Shown: positions 4,231 through 40,266, numbered from the stretch's first letter. The stretch is 64,000 nt of DNA from Promethearchaeota archaeon (GCA_016840165.1 JAEOSU010000076.1:64001-128000); one strand, 5' to 3'. Notes: generated from the letters alone by a model not told the origin. Translations and numbers: made by a program.

Positions 4231-4527
4231 TTAACCTACTCCAAATAACTTTTCTGCTTCTTTTTCACGTAACCCGCTAATTCCAAAAAGTTCTTTAAAA
4301 ATGTATTTACCTTTATACATTACCACAGGAGTATTAACTATACATCCATCAGCATCACAAAAAGTTCCTAAAAAATTCTCGTCATTCAGTAATTGACTGA
4401 CAAATTCCTCGTCATTTATGTCTTTTTCAACATAATTAACTTCGTTTTCATTCAACCACTCTTTAAGGGCATGACAACGTGAACAATTTTCCTTAGTGAT
4501 TATAATGGGAAGTTTAATTTCAGCCAT
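4231..4527 (-). CDS. Glutaredoxin-like protein
   Basis: CSRC near the N-terminus, cis-Pro TPV motif, extra CDADGC insertion. Confidence 0.75.
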   Translation of the reverse strand: MAEIKLPIIITKENCSRCHALKEWLNENEVNYVEKDINDEEFVSQLLNDENFLGTFCDADGCIVNTPVVMYKGKYIFKELFGISGLREKEAEKLFGVG

Positions 4528-4605
4528 GATATTTCTATTTAAGTTATTAGCTATAAAAAATTTTTATCTTCTAAATTATAAATGCTTTTCTAATAGATAA
4601 CGTGT

Positions 4606-33785: not shown

Positions 33786-34196
33786 ATGAATTTTGAAGAT
33801 GAGGAGGAAGAATTCGATGAAGAATTCGATGAAGAATTTGATGAAGATCTGGACGAAGATTTGGATGAAGAGAGAGATTTTGAATTAAAAAAACCAACTC
33901 CAGAAGTTCTTGCAACTAAAACTCCAAAAGGTACCATTAGCTCGGAAGCAAAAAAGATTTCCGTATATCTAATGTCAACAATAGGGCCGGGGGAAAAGAA
34001 ACAAAAATTATTAATATATACTGGATATCAGATTAAGGATATCAAGGAAACAGTGGCTAATATATTTGGTTTAGACCCCTCTGATTTTCATTTATCTACA
34101 GGAGGAGTCACAATGGAGGAGGGATTAACGCTAAATGATTATAATGTTAATGATGGAGATGATATTTTGTTAATTCCGGCTAGCACTGCTGGCTAA
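33786..34196 (+). CDS. Ubiquitin-like protein 1 (acidic N-tail, mature C-terminus -PASTAG)
   Basis: Beta-grasp pattern IKDIKETVA..FHLSTGG..LNDYNVNDGDDILLIP ending Ala-Gly-stop; lies in the E1/E2/JAMM/RING locus. Confidence 0.85.
   Translation: MNFEDEEEEFDEEFDEEFDEDLDEDLDEERDFELKKPTPEVLATKTPKGTISSEAKKISVYLMSTIGPGEKKQKLLIYTGYQIKDIKETVANIFGLDPSDFHLSTGGVTMEEGLTLNDYNVNDGDDILLIPASTAG
33807..33866 (+). repeat. 12-bp tandem repeat x5 encoding (EEFD)3(EDLD)2
   Basis: gaagaattcgat gaagaattcgat gaagaatttgat gaagatctggac gaagatttggat. Confidence 0.85.
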
Positions 34197-34241: not shown

Positions 34242-35024
34242 CTATTTTTTATTTCTTGGAATTAAAGCAATTTCATCATCATCATCAATATTATACTCCC
34301 TTATAAGGGAATTTTCATGTAATAATATTCCGCCAGAGGAGAGTAAAAAATCATCGAGATTATATCCAAAAAATACTGCTATTCTTTCTTTAAGATCTCT
34401 AATGAAATCTGATGATTCGATTATTAAAATTTTAGTTTTCTCTCCTGGTTCAACTAAGGACCTAACATAAACTCGTATTCTGTCTTGCATCCCTATTTTA
34501 TTTTTTGGGGGATAATAAATAATCTTTTTATTATTCTTAGCTTCCAACATAGATTCAATTAGGACTTTCCTCTCTTCAGCATCATAATATAATAATTCTC
34601 TGAGGAAAAATATCTTATCCATTTTAGATAGATCTAATATTTCTATCTTCTCTAATTCTTCTGGAATAAATAATGAAAAAATAAACTCATGAAGTTTTGG
34701 TATTTCTTCATATGAATCATCTGAATCAGCATAATCATCAATTAGAGGCATTGCTTCGAAATAATCATTTAAAAAAGCACTAGAAATTCCTTTATGTGGT
34801 TTTCTATTCAAAGGAATCTTCTTCTTTAAAATTAAATTATCGGGTTCTTTTTTAGATTCTATGATTGTATAGAGAGTAACACTAGGTAAAACAGCAACAC
34901 TACTTATAATTAGGATTGAATTTAGAAGGATATGATCTATATTAAAGAAAATAAAGAGAAGATAGATTAAAATAAAGAATATATAGAGAATGATTGTACC
35001 AAATAATAGATGCTTTAGTTTCAT
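34242..35024 (-). CDS. Two-TM membrane protein with C-terminal Ubl domain lacking a terminal Gly
   Basis: C-terminal PGEK..IRDLKE..FLLSSGG..EYNIDDDDEIALIPRNKK aligns with Ubl1 and Ubl2. Confidence 0.8.
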   Translation of the reverse strand: MKLKHLLFGTIILYIFFILIYLLFIFFNIDHILLNSILIISSVAVLPSVTLYTIIESKKEPDNLILKKKIPLNRKPHKGISSAFLNDYFEAMPLIDDYADSDDSYEEIPKLHEFIFSLFIPEELEKIEILDLSKMDKIFFLRELLYYDAEERKVLIESMLEAKNNKKIIYYPPKNKIGMQDRIRVYVRSLVEPGEKTKILIIESSDFIRDLKERIAVFFGYNLDDFLLSSGGILLHENSLIREYNIDDDDEIALIPRNKK

Positions 35025-35109
35025 GATTTTATTTTTAATACCTACTTCTAAATTTTAAATATAAATCTCTTAATATAAATTCCATTGGAATAAATTTGCA
35101 ATTTCTCTT

Positions 35110-35785
35110 TTATTCCTCATTGATTAATTTTCTAACCTCAAAATATTTGTCTTCATTTAAGCAAAATAATACTATTCTATTTTGTCTTCTAATGGTTATC
35201 AGTTGTAATTTTTGTAAAATCTTAAAATACTTTTTTATAGAATTATAATTTCTTTTTAGCCCATTTGCAATTTCGGTGATTTTAAATTCTTTTAAAGAAT
35301 TTTTCTGTATGAAACTTATTATTTCTTTGACGATACTTTGTTTTAAATAGAAATGTAATTCATCAAACTCAGGATTTAAATCAAATTTGAAAAATACTCG
35401 TTGATTTTCAAATTTTTTAGATCTTACAAATTGAAATTTCTCTAAACAAGATAAATGCCATAATACTTGATTACTTCCAATGTTTATTGCTTTCATAATC
35501 TCATTAATATTTGATGGTGTTTGTTTAATTAAATTAAAGATTTCATTTCTTACTGGATGTTCTATGATGTTATTCTTCATCAATTTAGTCCCAGGAATAA
35601 GGATTTTTTTTTTTAATAAGCTTCTTTATGATTTTTTCGATGCTATTTTTATTTATATTTGGGTTTAACTTTACCCTATTACTAATGAATAAGACGATAT
35701 CTTCAATTGAAAAGAATGGTTTCTTTTTTAGATATTCTTTAATTAAGTCAAAAACAATATCTTCGGCATAATTGGGGGATTTCAT
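35110..35785 (-). pseudogene. Winged-helix (ArsR-like, double wHTH) regulator split by a frameshift in an A11 tract
   Basis: ORFs 35585-35785 and 35110-35583 fuse in frame if one A is removed from 35604-35614 (..IKKKILIPGTKLMKNNIIEHPVR..); HTH NEIMKAINIGSNQVLWHLSCLEK. Confidence 0.7.
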
Positions 35786-36042
35786 TAGTGTATACTTCTA
35801 ATATGTTAGATGAAATGAATTTATTAATGATTTCTTTTATCTAAAATGTTATCTTTCAGTTCATATTAATTACTAACCATTTATTCAATTTATAAGTATA
35901 TTTTCTTAGATTAATAATGGTATTTATGTCTTTATTCAAGAATTTTCAAAATCATTCCAATTGGTTTTATAATATCATTTTAGCATGTTCTTAGTAAGTT
36001 TAAAAATAAACTTTCAAAAAATAAAAAAAAGAAGTGAAAAAA

Positions 36043-36378
36043 ATGAGTTTTGATAATGATTTTGATGAGGAATTGGAACCATTAAAGTCTAAAACGCCTA
36101 CAAGTAAAACACCTTCAGCAGGAAAGAAACTGACTCTATATTTTATGTCAACTATCGGTCCTGGTGAAAAGAAAGAAAAGTTAACCGTAAATGATGCTAA
36201 TCAAGTCAGTGATATTAAAGAAACCTTAGGAAATTTATACGGTCTTGACCCTGATGAATTTCATTTATCATCTGGTGGAGTTACAATGGATGAAAGTAAT
36301 CAATTAAAAGATTATAACGTAAATGATGGAGACGACATTCTTTTAATTCCTGCGAGTACGGCGGGTAGACTTATATAA
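36043..36378 (+). CDS. Ubiquitin-like protein 2 (pro-form, -PASTAG|RLI)
   Basis: Close paralog of Ubl1 (MSTIGPGEKK, DYNVNDGDDILLIPASTAG) with a 3-aa extension; directly upstream of E1. ATG 36043 (GTG 36034 in the track). Confidence 0.87.
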   Translation: MSFDNDFDEELEPLKSKTPTSKTPSAGKKLTLYFMSTIGPGEKKEKLTVNDANQVSDIKETLGNLYGLDPDEFHLSSGGVTMDESNQLKDYNVNDGDDILLIPASTAGRLI

Positions 36379-36400
36379 TTTTCTATATAATTTATAATAA

Positions 36401-36432
36401 GAAGGCTTTAGTCCTTCATTTATTTTTTTTTT
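36401..36432 (+). terminator. Short hairpin plus T10 tract between Ubl2 and E1
   Basis: GAAGG-ctttagt-CCTTC followed by T10 at 36423-36432. Confidence 0.4.
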
Positions 36433-36445
36433 ATTAATAATTAAG

Positions 36446-37678
36446 GTGATAGGATTGGAGAAAAATTCAGATTTTTTTGGTAAAGAACTGTCAGTGGAGG
36501 AACGAGACTTATATGACCGCCAATTTCGCCTTGAAGGTTGGTCACAAAAGGTAGTAAAAAATTCGAGAGTCCTAATAGCAGGTGTAGGAGGTTTAGGTTG
36601 TGAAACTGCTAAAAATTTAGCTATGTTAGGTGTGGGTCATATCGATCTTGTTGATTTAGATATAATTGAACATTCTAATTTAAACCGACAAATACTTTTT
36701 ACTGGTGCTCAAATAGGAGAATCCAAAGCGATTGTAGCTGCTAGAAAATTGAGGGAAGTAAATCCAAATATAACTATAAAAGGGTATTCTACCTCTTTAG
36801 AACGATTAAATCCTGAAATTTATCAAGCCGTTGATATTGTGGTTGGTGGTCTTGATTCGATGATTGCTCGTTTAAACTTAAATGCGCAGTGTATAAGATT
36901 TAGAAAACCTTTAGTTGATGGGGGCGTATCTGGTTATCATGGGCATATCTATACCGTGTTTCCTTATAAAAATGCCTGCTATGAGTGTAACCCATTACCT
37001 ATTGGCGAAAGTGATGAAATGGCAGCTTGTACTGTAGTTGGAATTCCCCGGAAAAGAATTCACTGTGTTTTTAAAGGGGATATGGCTTTTAGAGAAAAAT
37101 TTGATAGAGATCCAAATCCAAAAGATATGAATGATATAAAATATATTCAAAAAGCGGCAAATGAATTAGTAAATAAACATAATTTCTTACCCGAATACAC
37201 TGAAGATGATATTGTAAAAATTATTGATAGACATGATCCAGGATTAATTACAGTTAATGCCGTTATTTCTGCTTTACAGTCTCATGAGACTATAAAGATT
37301 ATTCATTGGAAAAAAGGGCATAAAGGATTAGGAGCGCCCATACAGGATTATGTTATCTTTAATGGTATTACCATGAAATTATATCATATTGAAAAAAAAA
37401 GAAACCCAGAATGTTCTCAATGTGGAAGAAATGCTCGACGTGTTATTATAAAAATGAAAGCACAGTCACCTTGCATGAATATTATAAAAATTTTAAATCA
37501 TCATGGGTATAACTTAGAGGAAAATTTTGAACCCATTATTACACTATTGGATTTCAATGATATACAAGTTATTGATTTAGAAAAGAATGCTAGAGAAAAT
37601 GATTTACGTAATTTAGAATTTTTAATTGTAGCTGGGTTTGTTGGTGGAGAAATTTATGTAACACTAAAATTAAAATGA
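36446..37678 (+). CDS. Ubiquitin-like activating enzyme E1 (UBA2/UBA3-like)
   Basis: YDRQ, GVGGLG, DLDIIEHSNLNRQ, Zn sites CYEC and CSQC, catalytic-Cys motif ACTVVGIPRKRIHC, C-terminal UFD-sized domain. Confidence 0.92.
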   Translation: MIGLEKNSDFFGKELSVEERDLYDRQFRLEGWSQKVVKNSRVLIAGVGGLGCETAKNLAMLGVGHIDLVDLDIIEHSNLNRQILFTGAQIGESKAIVAARKLREVNPNITIKGYSTSLERLNPEIYQAVDIVVGGLDSMIARLNLNAQCIRFRKPLVDGGVSGYHGHIYTVFPYKNACYECNPLPIGESDEMAACTVVGIPRKRIHCVFKGDMAFREKFDRDPNPKDMNDIKYIQKAANELVNKHNFLPEYTEDDIVKIIDRHDPGLITVNAVISALQSHETIKIIHWKKGHKGLGAPIQDYVIFNGITMKLYHIEKKRNPECSQCGRNARRVIIKMKAQSPCMNIIKILNHHGYNLEENFEPIITLLDFNDIQVIDLEKNARENDLRNLEFLIVAGFVGGEIYVTLKLK

Positions 37679-37764
37679 ATTTATGATCAAAATAAATATT
37701 TATAATAATTGTCTTATCAAAAACTATAAGAATTGAAAATTAAAAAAAAAGGGGTTGAAAAAAA

Positions 37765-38292
37765 TTGAGTTTAAGAAGTAGTCGTATTTCTCGAGATTTT
37801 GCGGGTTTAAAAAAGATGCTTAAGAATGGAACCATGGTTCAATTAAAACCATTTAATCCAAAAAAAAAAAGTATTGATCATTTAGCTATTACTATCAGAG
37901 GTCCCAAAGGAACAGCTTATGCAGGGGGTCTTTTTAAATTAGAAATGAAATTCCCTGCTCAATATCCTAAGCAGCCTCCATTTGTGAGACTCCATACACC
38001 AATTTGGCATCCAAATTTTTGGCCTAAACCAAGTGAATATAAAGGACAAAGAAATATCTGTTTAGCATTAGTTGATCCTTCTTTAGTTGGTAAAAAAGGA
38101 GGTTGGAGTCCTTCGAAAACAGCAGTCACTATAGTGCAAGCAATAATTGCTATGTTAAATACACGCGGAAAATATGTTAATCCAACAGATGTATTTAATA
38201 AAAAAGCAGCAATCGAAATGATAAAGGATCAAAAATTCTTCGAGAAAAAAGTTAAAAACCTAGTAAAGAAGTATGCAAAAGAAAAGTGGTGA
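37765..38292 (+). CDS. Ubiquitin-conjugating enzyme E2 (UBC fold)
   Basis: GPKGTAYAGGLFKL..FPAQYP.QPP, TPIWHPN, NICL, WSPS. Confidence 0.94.
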   Translation: MSLRSSRISRDFAGLKKMLKNGTMVQLKPFNPKKKSIDHLAITIRGPKGTAYAGGLFKLEMKFPAQYPKQPPFVRLHTPIWHPNFWPKPSEYKGQRNICLALVDPSLVGKKGGWSPSKTAVTIVQAIIAMLNTRGKYVNPTDVFNKKAAIEMIKDQKFFEKKVKNLVKKYAKEKW

Positions 38293-38299
38293 AAATAAT

Positions 38300-39106
38300 A
38301 TGAAAAATGATGAAATTCCTGATGATCCAATTAGAGAAGCCATTAAACAAAAAATAAAAAACAAAATCAAAAAAGAATTACTTAAAGAAATATATTCGGA
38401 ATTACAATTAGAAGAAGAAATTACAAACGAGATAACCACTGAAATAATTAGTGATCCTTTATTAGAGCATTCCGAGATCAATAAAGCTAATCTTGAACCG
38501 ATTCCTTCAGAGATCGTAGAAACTTCTGCTAGTAATGGTAAATTTAAAGCACCTATAGCTATAAATGTAAAATCCATTCTAAAAATTGCCAGTCACGCAT
38601 TAAAATATGCTCATTCAAAAATCCCAAGAGAAGAATGGGTTGAGGTTATTGGCTTACTTGCTGGAACATTTGATAAAATTCATAACGTTTTATATATTGA
38701 AGATGTTTATCCAATGGGACATGGTAATGCTGTGTATGCGGAAATTAAAGATTATAAAAATTATGTAAGAGCTTTTAAAGATATCAAAAAAAGTAGATTG
38801 TTTATATGTGGCTGGTATCACTCTCATCCATCCTATGGATGCTTTATGTCTAGAGAAGATTTAGGTACCCAATCGCGGTATCAAACATTATGGGATAAAG
38901 CAATAGCACTTGTAATTGATCCTTATCAGATAAATGGAAAATCATTGGGTTTTGAAATTTATCGTGCGAATTTTAAAAAACGAGAGTGGTTTTCTGTACC
39001 TTTTGAGATTAATGGAAATTTAGATGTGGGAATGTTACCTGAAATTTTGGATTTTATGAACCCAATTATAGAGGGGAAGGCTGCTTATTTAGAATATGAT
39101 GAATAA
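38300..39106 (+). CDS. JAMM/MPN+ isopeptidase (Rpn11/CSN5-like)
   Basis: EVIGLL, GWYHSHPSYGCFMSREDL, ALVIDP. ATG 38300 preferred over 38273, which overlaps E2. Confidence 0.93.
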   Translation: MKNDEIPDDPIREAIKQKIKNKIKKELLKEIYSELQLEEEITNEITTEIISDPLLEHSEINKANLEPIPSEIVETSASNGKFKAPIAINVKSILKIASHALKYAHSKIPREEWVEVIGLLAGTFDKIHNVLYIEDVYPMGHGNAVYAEIKDYKNYVRAFKDIKKSRLFICGWYHSHPSYGCFMSREDLGTQSRYQTLWDKAIALVIDPYQINGKSLGFEIYRANFKKREWFSVPFEINGNLDVGMLPEILDFMNPIIEGKAAYLEYDE

Positions 39107-39126
39107 AATCAAAGGTTGATTAATCT

Positions 39127-40266
39127 ATGGTAAAAAAGAAAAATTTGATAATCCTTCTTTTTGTCTTAATTGGTTTTGTCCATGGGTTGATCTCAATTTC
39201 ATTAAATATTTTTCTAACTTGGGTATTTATCGGTTTGTGGATATTTTTCATAATAAAAATTTTCGAAAACATAAAACAACATCGCGAATTTAATTCACCT
39301 TATAATACGGCATTTTTTGTTATTCTTCCTTTATTTATTGGGATCTTTTATTCTATGTGGGGCTACTATACGAATTTATTTGGTGAAAATCTCTTTATGA
39401 ACTCCAATATCTATTTTAGTTTATGGAGCTTAATTTTTGGATTTCCATTTGTTTTATATGGATCTTATTCATTATATCGTTGCTTTAAAAAGTATAATGT
39501 GATCTATTTTGGGAGAAGAGCTGTAAAGGCTAAAGTGGTTGGATATCTACTATCATTCTCAATAATTTTTGGTATTATTCTTTATTGGATAATTTTTTAC
39601 TCTATTATTGAGTTTTTTAATTATTTATTAATTCCTTTACATTTCTCTTTAGATTTAAATCTTTTAATCATTTTTATATTGACTATTCTAATTCTTATTT
39701 TATTTGGATTTTTAAATCCTCAAAGACGATTATCTCCTTTAACTCGAGAATATATAGCACAGCGTACTCGAAGAATTAATGCTCTCACAAGACCTAGTAT
39801 TCAAAATCAGAGAGTAAAGACAACTAACCGATCAACTTCTCCCTCAACTAGAACAGTGACCCGATCAACTACTACTTCCTATAGATCCTCAAGGATCACT
39901 CCAAAATCTAAAAGCCATGCGAGGAGAACAACAAGAACCACTGAAACTAAAAAGACAAAAACTAATCTAAAAATTCGAAATATAAATGCTTATAAGCCAA
40001 AAGCGGCATTTCTGACAGAAGAAGATTTCAAATGCATTTTCTGTTTTAATTTGCCAAAATTTCCCGAAGATAAAGGTAGAGGGATCATTTTATGCCCTAA
40101 TTGTAGATATCCTTCCCACGCAGATGAGTTTAAAGACTGGTTAAAAACTTCAAATTTATGTTCACGTTGTAGCGCACCCATTCCCTCTAGCTTTAGAAGA
40201 AATCCAAGAATTATTAGTATAAAAAATTATATTTCTATCTATAAACAAATTTTAAAAAAAACATAA
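39127..40266 (+). CDS. Polytopic membrane protein with C-terminal RING-like domain (candidate E3 ligase)
   Basis: About 6 TM segments, an S/T/R-rich linker, then CIFC-x16-CPNC-x4-H-x2-E-x3-W-x6-CSRC. Confidence 0.78.
   Translation: MVKKKNLIILLFVLIGFVHGLISISLNIFLTWVFIGLWIFFIIKIFENIKQHREFNSPYNTAFFVILPLFIGIFYSMWGYYTNLFGENLFMNSNIYFSLWSLIFGFPFVLYGSYSLYRCFKKYNVIYFGRRAVKAKVVGYLLSFSIIFGIILYWIIFYSIIEFFNYLLIPLHFSLDLNLLIIFILTILILILFGFLNPQRRLSPLTREYIAQRTRRINALTRPSIQNQRVKTTNRSTSPSTRTVTRSTTTSYRSSRITPKSKSHARRTTRTTETKKTKTNLKIRNINAYKPKAAFLTEEDFKCIFCFNLPKFPEDKGRGIILCPNCRYPSHADEFKDWLKTSNLCSRCSAPIPSSFRRNPRIISIKNYISIYKQILKKT

Follow-up and report, generated by a model that had tools for sequence, protein, structure and literature searches.

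Locus and protein architecture

The stretch of DNA analysed here (the window, 64,000 nucleotides (nt) of a Promethearchaeota archaeon assembly, GCA_016840165.1 JAEOSU010000076.1:64001-128000; G+C content ~30%; assigned by its protein matches to the Loki-type Asgard archaea, Lokiarchaeia) carries an operon for a ubiquitin-like conjugation cascade and, on the opposite strand, the gene of a small membrane protein that ends in a ubiquitin-like (Ubl) domain. We call this protein TM-Ubl, after its transmembrane (TM) hairpin and its Ubl domain. Between these two parts lies a further domain, here termed the tail module, and the gene immediately upstream encodes a triple winged helix-turn-helix (wHTH) protein. 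Gene adjacency, gene fusion and complex prediction point to docking of the wHTH protein onto the tail module, which leads us to lean towards a role for TM-Ubl as a membrane tether of this putative regulator. The genes and features of the locus are compiled in Table 1. A spacer of 85 nt separates the wHTH gene from the TM-Ubl gene, in agreement with the preliminary description of the locus, made from the window alone, which had placed TM-Ubl on the minus strand downstream of a frameshifted winged-helix regulator.

Table 1. Genes and sequence features at the TM-Ubl locus (window positions; aa, amino acids; ORF, open reading frame; AF2, AlphaFold2; K/R, Lys/Arg)
Feature	Position	Strand	Basis or remark
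Ubl1, free modifier ending ...STAG-stop	33786..34196	+	convergent to TM-Ubl
TM-Ubl gene	34242..35024	-	open ORF, 260 aa plus stop
Basic tail RNKK, replacing the ...STAG end of free Ubls	34245..34256	-	
Ubiquitin-family beta-grasp domain, aa 184-256	34257..34475	-	Pfam, AF2, Foldseek, alignment with free Ubls
Tail module, aa 85-173: acidic N-terminal part, helical bundle aa 116-166, PP motif	34506..34772	-	predicted wHTH docking site
Basic juxtamembrane linker, aa 56-84	34773..34859	-	K/R counts
TM helix 2, aa 32-55, with invariant polar S42, T50 and Y52	34860..34931	-	hydropathy and family alignment
TM helix 1, aa 8-28, preceded by a basic N-terminus	34941..35003	-	hydropathy, K/R counts; AF2 helix 3-26
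Palindrome ATTCCAATGGAAT (TTCCA-A-TGGAA), candidate operator	35079..35091	.	just upstream of TATA-like boxes of the TM-Ubl gene
Triple winged-helix (wHTH) gene, split into 66-aa and 157-aa ORFs	35110..35785	-	intact in relatives (223-226 aa)
Conserved block AAAACC-CAWTGGAATGA-TTTGAAG, related to the palindrome	35941..35968	.	divergent wHTH/Ubl2 intergenic region
Divergent operon: Ubl2, E1 (ThiF), E2 (UQ_con), JAMM (JAB), polytopic membrane protein with a RING-like finger	36034..40266	+	

The tail module is a separable domain

The middle part of TM-Ubl had at first been described as an acidic helical segment. Its N-terminal portion is indeed acidic and the segment is helical, but it is a conserved and separable domain of ~85 aa rather than a linker. 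A genome scan with a profile of the TM-Ubl family also matched unrelated ORFs through aa 30–177 alone, and a profile built solely from TM-Ubl proteins recovered the module in three loci (L019, L020 and L021) with E-values of 7e-22 to 1e-18. One 612-aa protein carries the module at its C-terminus, behind an N-terminal hydrophobic segment, a beta-propeller and one TM helix. The window's module matches the profile of a broader alignment (A4) at E 1.9e-28, a value to be read with the inclusion of this module and its close orthologues in that alignment.

A HMMER search of 1.84 billion representatives with the module profile (alignment A3) returned 104 proteins at E ≤ 1e-3, including 46 at E ≤ 1e-10. 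Most of the 104, which reach lengths of 2081 aa, carry the module at their very C-terminal end, and many of these have an N-terminal hydrophobic segment and one TM helix 80–250 aa from the end. Their N-terminal parts, which we read as ectodomains, contain beta-helix/NosD, FG-GAP, WD40/PQQ, LamG and Ig-like domains, and the few module proteins that bear names are assigned to Lokiarchaeota. This architecture suggests that in sister genera the module forms the cytoplasmic C-terminal tail of large surface proteins.

Folded alone (aa 116–168 of P0001), the module core is predicted as a small helical bundle with a predicted local distance difference test (pLDDT) score of 84–95. No Pfam family matched the window copy at E ≤ 10, and the other 12 copies gave scattered matches at chance level; a sequence-profile search of the PDB with the module returned nothing below E 0.38, and the best of 48,161 chains compared with the AF2 model by VIA-align scored Z 5.0, which is chance level for a small helical bundle. 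No fold is therefore assigned to the module, nor is its fold claimed to be new. One further candidate copy in the window's genome (C12:28484-28744) was dropped, its matches being weak (E 0.0065 and 0.09) and no wHTH gene adjoining it.

Three other proteins combine the module with a Cys/His-rich zinc finger (C-x2-H…C-x2-C…C-x2-C…C-x2-C; L021:2270-2776(-), P0173 and P0182). The finger is N-terminal in a soluble 168-aa protein with a C-terminal module, and C-terminal to the module in two large surface proteins of the beta-helix type.

The module is paired with a winged-helix gene

In 17 of 17 loci, TM-Ubl is immediately preceded on its own strand by a wHTH gene of ~223 aa, and these wHTH orthologues share a mean column identity of 76%. 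Sister genera encode wHTH paralogues, up to 21 per genome, whose coordinates interleave with the module matches. Neighbours were counted from complete lists of both match sets in five genomes (59 module and 79 wHTH matches in 20.4 Mb). The nearest same-strand wHTH begins 40–500 nt downstream of the module in 36 of the 59 cases and lies directly upstream of the module-bearing ORF in a further 12; eight module matches have no wHTH on the same contig and strand, some of them near a contig start, and for the remaining three the wHTH is located elsewhere along the contig. Adjacency thus amounts to 48/59, against a chance expectation for downstream adjacency of ~0.08 (arithmetic from 79 matches in 20.4 Mb).

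Four pairs were checked individually. Two ORFs, of 1111 and 1000 aa, hold module and wHTH in one frame, the latter with a TM helix at 626–644, the module at 690–768 and the wHTH at 791–991. In another case the wHTH gene overlaps the stop codon of a 1896-aa membrane protein, and in one locus a wHTH gene and a short wHTH paralogue are followed by a 1507-aa membrane protein ending in the module. Both fusions (L031:750-4082(-) and L032:698-3697(-)) belong to one genome of genus g7 (G270) and join the tail module to a complete triple winged-helix domain, and are thus putative transcription factors tethered covalently to the membrane; none of the 104 module representatives in the library is fused to a wHTH. 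Pairs of the upstream type (L033:1359-1790(+), with similar ORFs in G030, G159, G019 and G270) contain, between the wHTH gene and the membrane protein gene, a shorter wHTH paralogue of ~140–160 aa that matches profile positions 13–137 only.

In the 71 genomes of the family, wHTH matches of orthologue grade (E < ~1e-100) coincide with module matches of the TM-Ubl type; in the three exceptions (G150, G219 and G318) the matching gene is cut by a contig end. The combination of adjacency and fusion counts as classical evidence that module and wHTH form a functional pair. Judged from these sequence comparisons, the best explanation of TM-Ubl is that it is a specialised member of a Lokiarchaeial family of membrane protein/wHTH pairs, in which the ectodomain is missing and a Ubl domain has been added.

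Predicted complex of module and winged-helix protein

Because the window's wHTH gene is frameshifted, the pair from a related locus (L005), whose TM-Ubl is 53% identical to that of the window, was used for complex prediction. The wHTH protein and the cytoplasmic part of TM-Ubl, each with its own alignment, gave an interface score (interaction prediction score from aligned errors, ipSAE) of 0.78 in three of three runs, whereas the best of three controls scored 0.00. For comparison, 58 of 80 solved complexes and 2 of 110 mismatched pairs attained 0.78, counts that apply only approximately here because the prediction was run on our own alignments. The runs agree in at least 97% of contacts, with a partner pLDDT of 84.

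On the wHTH side the predicted interface spans aa 15–131, that is the first two winged helices, and takes in the invariant stretches FFS (24–26), IPGTKLM (63–69) and ALWHLSxLEKF (107–117). On the TM-Ubl side it coincides with the module (aa 85–181) and involves the ERKxLI helix, the PP motif and three invariant residues (I115, F116 and F140). Neither the Ubl domain nor the third winged helix takes part. The model supports, as a prediction, binding of the neighbouring wHTH protein by the TM-Ubl module.

A ubiquitin-fold domain with a glycine-free tail

Pfam PF00240 (ubiquitin) matches aa 187–255 of TM-Ubl with E 1.3e-7 (31.7 bits against a cut-off of 25.4), and it is the only family returned at E ≤ 0.1, the UBX signature (PF00789) of membrane adaptors of Cdc48 such as Ubx2 and UBXD8 being absent. 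AF2, run with 24 homologues, predicts a beta-grasp fold at aa 182–256 (pLDDT 73–87), with strands at 182–189, 196–203, 226–230, 233–235 and 250–256 and a helix at 208–219. Ubiquitin and SUMO chains headed the Foldseek results for the domain, with template modelling scores (TM-scores) on the target of 0.8–0.92 and root-mean-square deviations of 1.0–2.3, and ubiquitin of Caldiarchaeum subterraneum (6fno_D) was among the matches.

Identity of the domain is 38% to Ubl1 and 34% to Ubl2, and PGEK, LS(S/T)GG and YNxxDxDxIxLIP, together with other columns, are invariant across the three proteins. The ends differ: where the free Ubls read P-A-S-T-A-G, TM-Ubl reads P-R-N-K-K and stops. A Gly downstream of the xIP motif is missing from 116 of the 118 homologues that carry this motif, with SRKK seen 41 times and RNKK 14 times, and the two with Gly are isolated cases. 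Loss of the activatable end is therefore fixed in the TM-Ubl family. Lacking the exposable C-terminal Gly of a conjugatable modifier, the domain cannot be conjugated. These results bear out the preliminary description of TM-Ubl as a membrane-tethered, non-conjugatable copy of the locus Ubl that shares motifs with Ubl1 and Ubl2 and ends in RNKK, and they extend it in that the Gly-free end is family-wide. The domain is a paralogue of the free Ubls and is predicted to face the cytoplasm.

Relatives also encode other N-terminally extended Ubls that keep an Ala-Gly end (L022:1577-2503(+), L023:2122-2907(-) and L024:1752-2657(+)). One of them ends in STAG and has an N-terminal domain resembling Roadblock/LC7 by eye only; the other two start with a zinc ribbon plus coiled coil and end in VAG or STAGFF. 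Proteins of this kind would be conjugatable, 'cargo-fused' tags.

Membrane topology

Averaged over 24 homologues, 3.5 Lys plus Arg residues fall within the first 7 positions and 9.2 within aa 56–80, the 25 residues past TM helix 2, whereas the 5-residue loop between the TM helices has none and carries one acidic residue. Under the positive-inside rule this distribution predicts a hairpin with both termini inside and the Ubl domain in the cytoplasm. The two N-terminal TM helices proposed earlier thus stand as hydrophobic segments, and an outward-facing Ubl domain, named at the time as counter-evidence, is not what the charges predict.

The linker at aa 64–70 (34815–34835) reads L-I-L-K-K-K-I-P. 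An L-x-x-K-I/V-P motif is confined to the closest relatives, the wider-family consensus being KKKY, and a K-x-P acceptor motif was consequently rejected as a feature of the family.

The winged-helix protein and a candidate operator

In each of the 13 wHTH orthologues, Pfam assigns HTH_5 (ArsR) to the second winged helix and HrcA_DNA-bdg to the third, and weak PDB sequence matches are to Sso10a-2 and Lrs14-like proteins, which are archaeal DNA-binding proteins. The protein therefore looks like a DNA binder. A reading of the tandem winged helices as an ESCRT-II/Vps25 subunit was rejected on sequence-family grounds: the Pfam matches of the 13 orthologues comprise DNA-binding wHTH families only, with no EAP30 or Vps25. 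In the window the gene is split by one extra A in an A11 run at 35604–35614, and the frame with A10 yields ...LIKKKILIPGTKLMKNN..., matching the intact orthologues of 223–226 aa. The run could be an assembly or sequencing error, a real inactivation or a slippage switch.

The palindrome TTCCAATGGAA is conserved in the spacer between the wHTH and TM-Ubl genes: of 14 orthologous spacers, 8 carry it unchanged, genus g7 being represented among them, and three have a single mismatch. Its core, CCAWTGGAA, had no match in three loci without the cassette (53 kb). A third copy of CCAWTGGAA lies within the JAMM coding region of two relatives, ~200 nt from its start (L004 at ~4488 and L005 at 4525–4531), and is absent from the window.

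Distribution of TM-Ubl relative to the conjugation cascade

A search with the TM-Ubl protein gave 367 homologues at E ≤ 1e-3; those listed are ~262 aa long, mostly full-length and from Lokiarchaeial metagenome bins. Among 301 genomes of the phylum, full-length matches are restricted to four genera (g1, g2, g6 and g7) of one family, and other genera yield matches to the Ubl domain only or none. Every part of the protein is conserved, with a mean column identity of 0.80 in the Ubl domain (the highest value), 0.75 in the module core and 0.71 in the TM hairpin.

Gene order in g7 is as in the window. In g6 the core operon (coiled-coil gene, Ubl-E1-E2-JAMM-RING) and the TM-Ubl cassette are on separate contigs, and the cassette keeps TM-Ubl next to wHTH, another free Ubl and a 226-aa protein paralogous to the RING part. 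This paralogue (L025:11622-12299(+); genome G210, contig C6) corresponds only to the Ser/Thr/Arg-rich linker and RING-like finger of the membrane RING protein, with 48% identity over 143 aa. Genus g3 has the complete core operon, including the membrane RING gene, and no wHTH, TM-Ubl or second Ubl. In g4 we found no E1 orthologue (2 genomes), no full-length TM-Ubl (4 genomes) and no module (5 genomes).

TM-Ubl is thus found only where the E1-E2-JAMM-RING cascade is present, and it is always accompanied by the wHTH gene and the gene of a free Ubl. Co-occurrence with the cascade, which the preliminary description had named as a check, holds in this one direction; the converse fails, as the cascade occurs without TM-Ubl in g3. 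Since the operon is complete there, TM-Ubl is not an obligate subunit of the cascade.

Proposed role of TM-Ubl and alternatives

We consider it probable, if only just, that TM-Ubl is a membrane tether or anti-factor for the regulator of the locus, with its Ubl domain serving as a handle for the ubiquitin machinery. In this model the hairpin would anchor a protein whose two ends are cytoplasmic and whose basic linker is followed by the module and the C-terminal Ubl domain. That domain would have been copied from the free Ubls of the locus and have lost the Ala-Gly end, escaping activation by E1; since it is not conjugatable, it could act only as a surface that others recognise or modify. By docking winged helices one and two, the module would keep the wHTH regulator at the membrane. 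The regulator's presumed targets are the palindrome upstream of TM-Ubl and the related site in the promoter region that it has in common with Ubl2-E1-E2-JAMM-RING. Ubl receptors, an unfoldase or proteasome, the JAMM protein or the membrane RING ligase might then read, modify or remove the tether by its Ubl handle, and the state of the tagging system would set the fate or conformation of the tether, hence the amount of free regulator, and hence the expression of the tagging operon. The half of the model that concerns pairing and docking is well supported in silico; DNA binding at the candidate sites, sequestration of the regulator, the reader or ligand of the Ubl domain and the sign of the feedback are what we infer.

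Several points weigh against this interpretation. Binding is a model prediction made on our own alignments, and the predicted interface takes in the presumed ArsR-type recognition helix, so the wHTH may be a protein-binding scaffold rather than a DNA binder. The frameshift in the window means that the pair may be non-functional in this strain, unless it reflects a sequencing error. Within the window the 10-mer carries no significance on its own, having two overlapping matches, a number reached by 10 of 100 shuffles, and weight is therefore placed on its conserved position. No other module-bearing protein was found in the window's genome, and the feedback step is speculation.

The main rival explanation is an adaptor of the type used in endoplasmic reticulum-associated degradation (ERAD), in which TM-Ubl would be the UBL-bearing membrane subunit that works with the operon's six-helix membrane RING ligase, scaffolding it or bringing the proteasome or Cdc48 to membrane substrates. 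The membrane RING gene lies only 4 kb from TM-Ubl, the g6 cassette still adjoins a RING paralogue after having moved away from E1-E2-JAMM, and the TM hairpin is unusually conserved, with invariant polar residues consistent with intramembrane helix packing. Against this stand genus g3, where the full operon with its membrane RING lacks TM-Ubl, a domain order unlike that of HERP and TMUB1, and the fact that the wHTH is the sole partner backed by adjacency, fusion and modelling. We hold the adaptor role unlikely as the principal function, though it is compatible with tethering as an added one.

Two other roles are less likely than the adaptor, and each appears to us improbable. TM-Ubl could be a decoy or competitive inhibitor whose dead-end Ubl domain takes up, at the membrane, the Ubl sites of E1, E2 or JAMM, damping or localising the cascade; the missing Gly end fits, as does the invariance within the TM-Ubl family of the PGEK loop, LSSGG and DYxIxDxDEIxLIP, which are common to the free Ubls, but these motifs may be just requirements of the fold, and a decoy has no need for a module or a wHTH partner. 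Alternatively, the Ubl domain or the Lys-rich linker might be a membrane-anchored acceptor, a built-in substrate or primer for free Ubl or chains that marks a membrane site or, in the manner of non-cleavable ubiquitin fusions, signals degradation. The conserved K196, K198 and K212 of the Ubl domain, the very Lys-rich juxtamembrane linker and the L-x-x-K-I/V-P of the closest relatives could speak for this role, but the K-x-P element is not kept in the wider family.

Beyond the locus, it is conceivable, although we would not yet bet on it, that the paired genes constitute an undescribed transmembrane signalling system of Lokiarchaeia, with up to ~20 pairs per genome, in which receptors with varied ectodomains hold a dedicated triple-wHTH factor by their tail module, and that TM-Ubl is a rewired member with the ubiquitin-like system as its input. 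If so, TM-Ubl would be an archaeal forerunner of the ubiquitin-controlled release of membrane-tethered transcription factors, following the logic of Spt23/Mga2 and Nrf1, as well as the first UBL-domain protein outside eukaryotes that is not conjugatable and has a defined partner. The receptor-plus-regulator family may be one of the main routes by which these archaea signal across the membrane. A fixed, membrane-anchored and non-conjugatable Ubl copy shows that the split between tag and handle was already present in this Asgard lineage, and the paired winged-helix regulator opens a way to how an archaeal ubiquitin-like system is regulated.

Comparison with known systems

The ubiquitin operon of C. 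subterraneum encodes ubiquitin, E1, E2, a small RING finger protein and Rpn11 (PMC5654768, PMC6043591). The cascade adjoining TM-Ubl is of the same archaeal ubiquitin-like kind. To our knowledge, the C. subterraneum operon has no membrane-anchored UBL-domain protein, docking module or paired winged-helix gene. A literature search of incomplete coverage yielded nothing for Asgard archaea on a Ubl anchored in the membrane or on receptor/wHTH pairs of this kind.

In eukaryotes, ubiquitin-fold domains within larger proteins serve as docking handles rather than tags. HERP (HERPUD1) and yeast Usa1 in the Hrd1 complex, and TMUB1 and yeast Dsc3 in the gp78 and Dsc (Tul1) ligase complexes, are membrane proteins with UBL domains. 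TM-Ubl resembles them as an integral membrane protein with a predicted cytoplasmic, non-conjugatable UBL domain and with a membrane RING ligase in the same system. The Dsc complex has been described (PMC11513148). The likeness is one of architecture alone, no sequence relation having been found outside the ubiquitin fold, and even the architecture differs: the Ubl domain is C-terminal to the hairpin in TM-Ubl and N-terminal in HERP and TMUB1, TM-Ubl has an extra module predicted to dock the wHTH, and its ligase operon exists without it in sister genera.

Anti-sigma/extracytoplasmic function (ECF) sigma pairs of the RsgI/SigI type in Clostridium thermocellum carry extracellular carbohydrate-binding sensor domains. 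Like these, the module/wHTH family comprises many paralogous pairs per genome, each with a single-pass membrane protein whose ectodomain varies and whose cytoplasmic domain is predicted to bind the regulator encoded by the adjoining gene. It differs in being archaeal, in having a triple winged-helix partner instead of a sigma factor and in a module without detectable relation to anti-sigma domains; TM-Ubl, moreover, has no ectodomain and carries a Ubl domain instead.

Yeast Spt23/Mga2 and mammalian NFE2L1/Nrf1, the latter a regulator of proteasome genes, are membrane-tethered factors under ubiquitin–proteasome control. They share with our model the logic of a membrane-held regulator, ubiquitin-dependent release and feedback, of which release and feedback are only inferred for TM-Ubl. 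In the eukaryotic cases the factor itself is membrane-bound, ubiquitylated and processed, whereas the TM-Ubl system divides tether and factor between two proteins, which are joined in a few paralogues, and it is the tether that contains the ubiquitin fold.

The Ubl2 gene

The Ubl2 gene heads the divergent operon, in which E1 occupies 36446–37678, and the protein it encodes ends in ...STAG-RLI. The mechanically called ORF begins at a GTG (36034, VKKMSF…), and alignment of orthologous loci makes the ATG at 36043 (MSF…) the likelier start.

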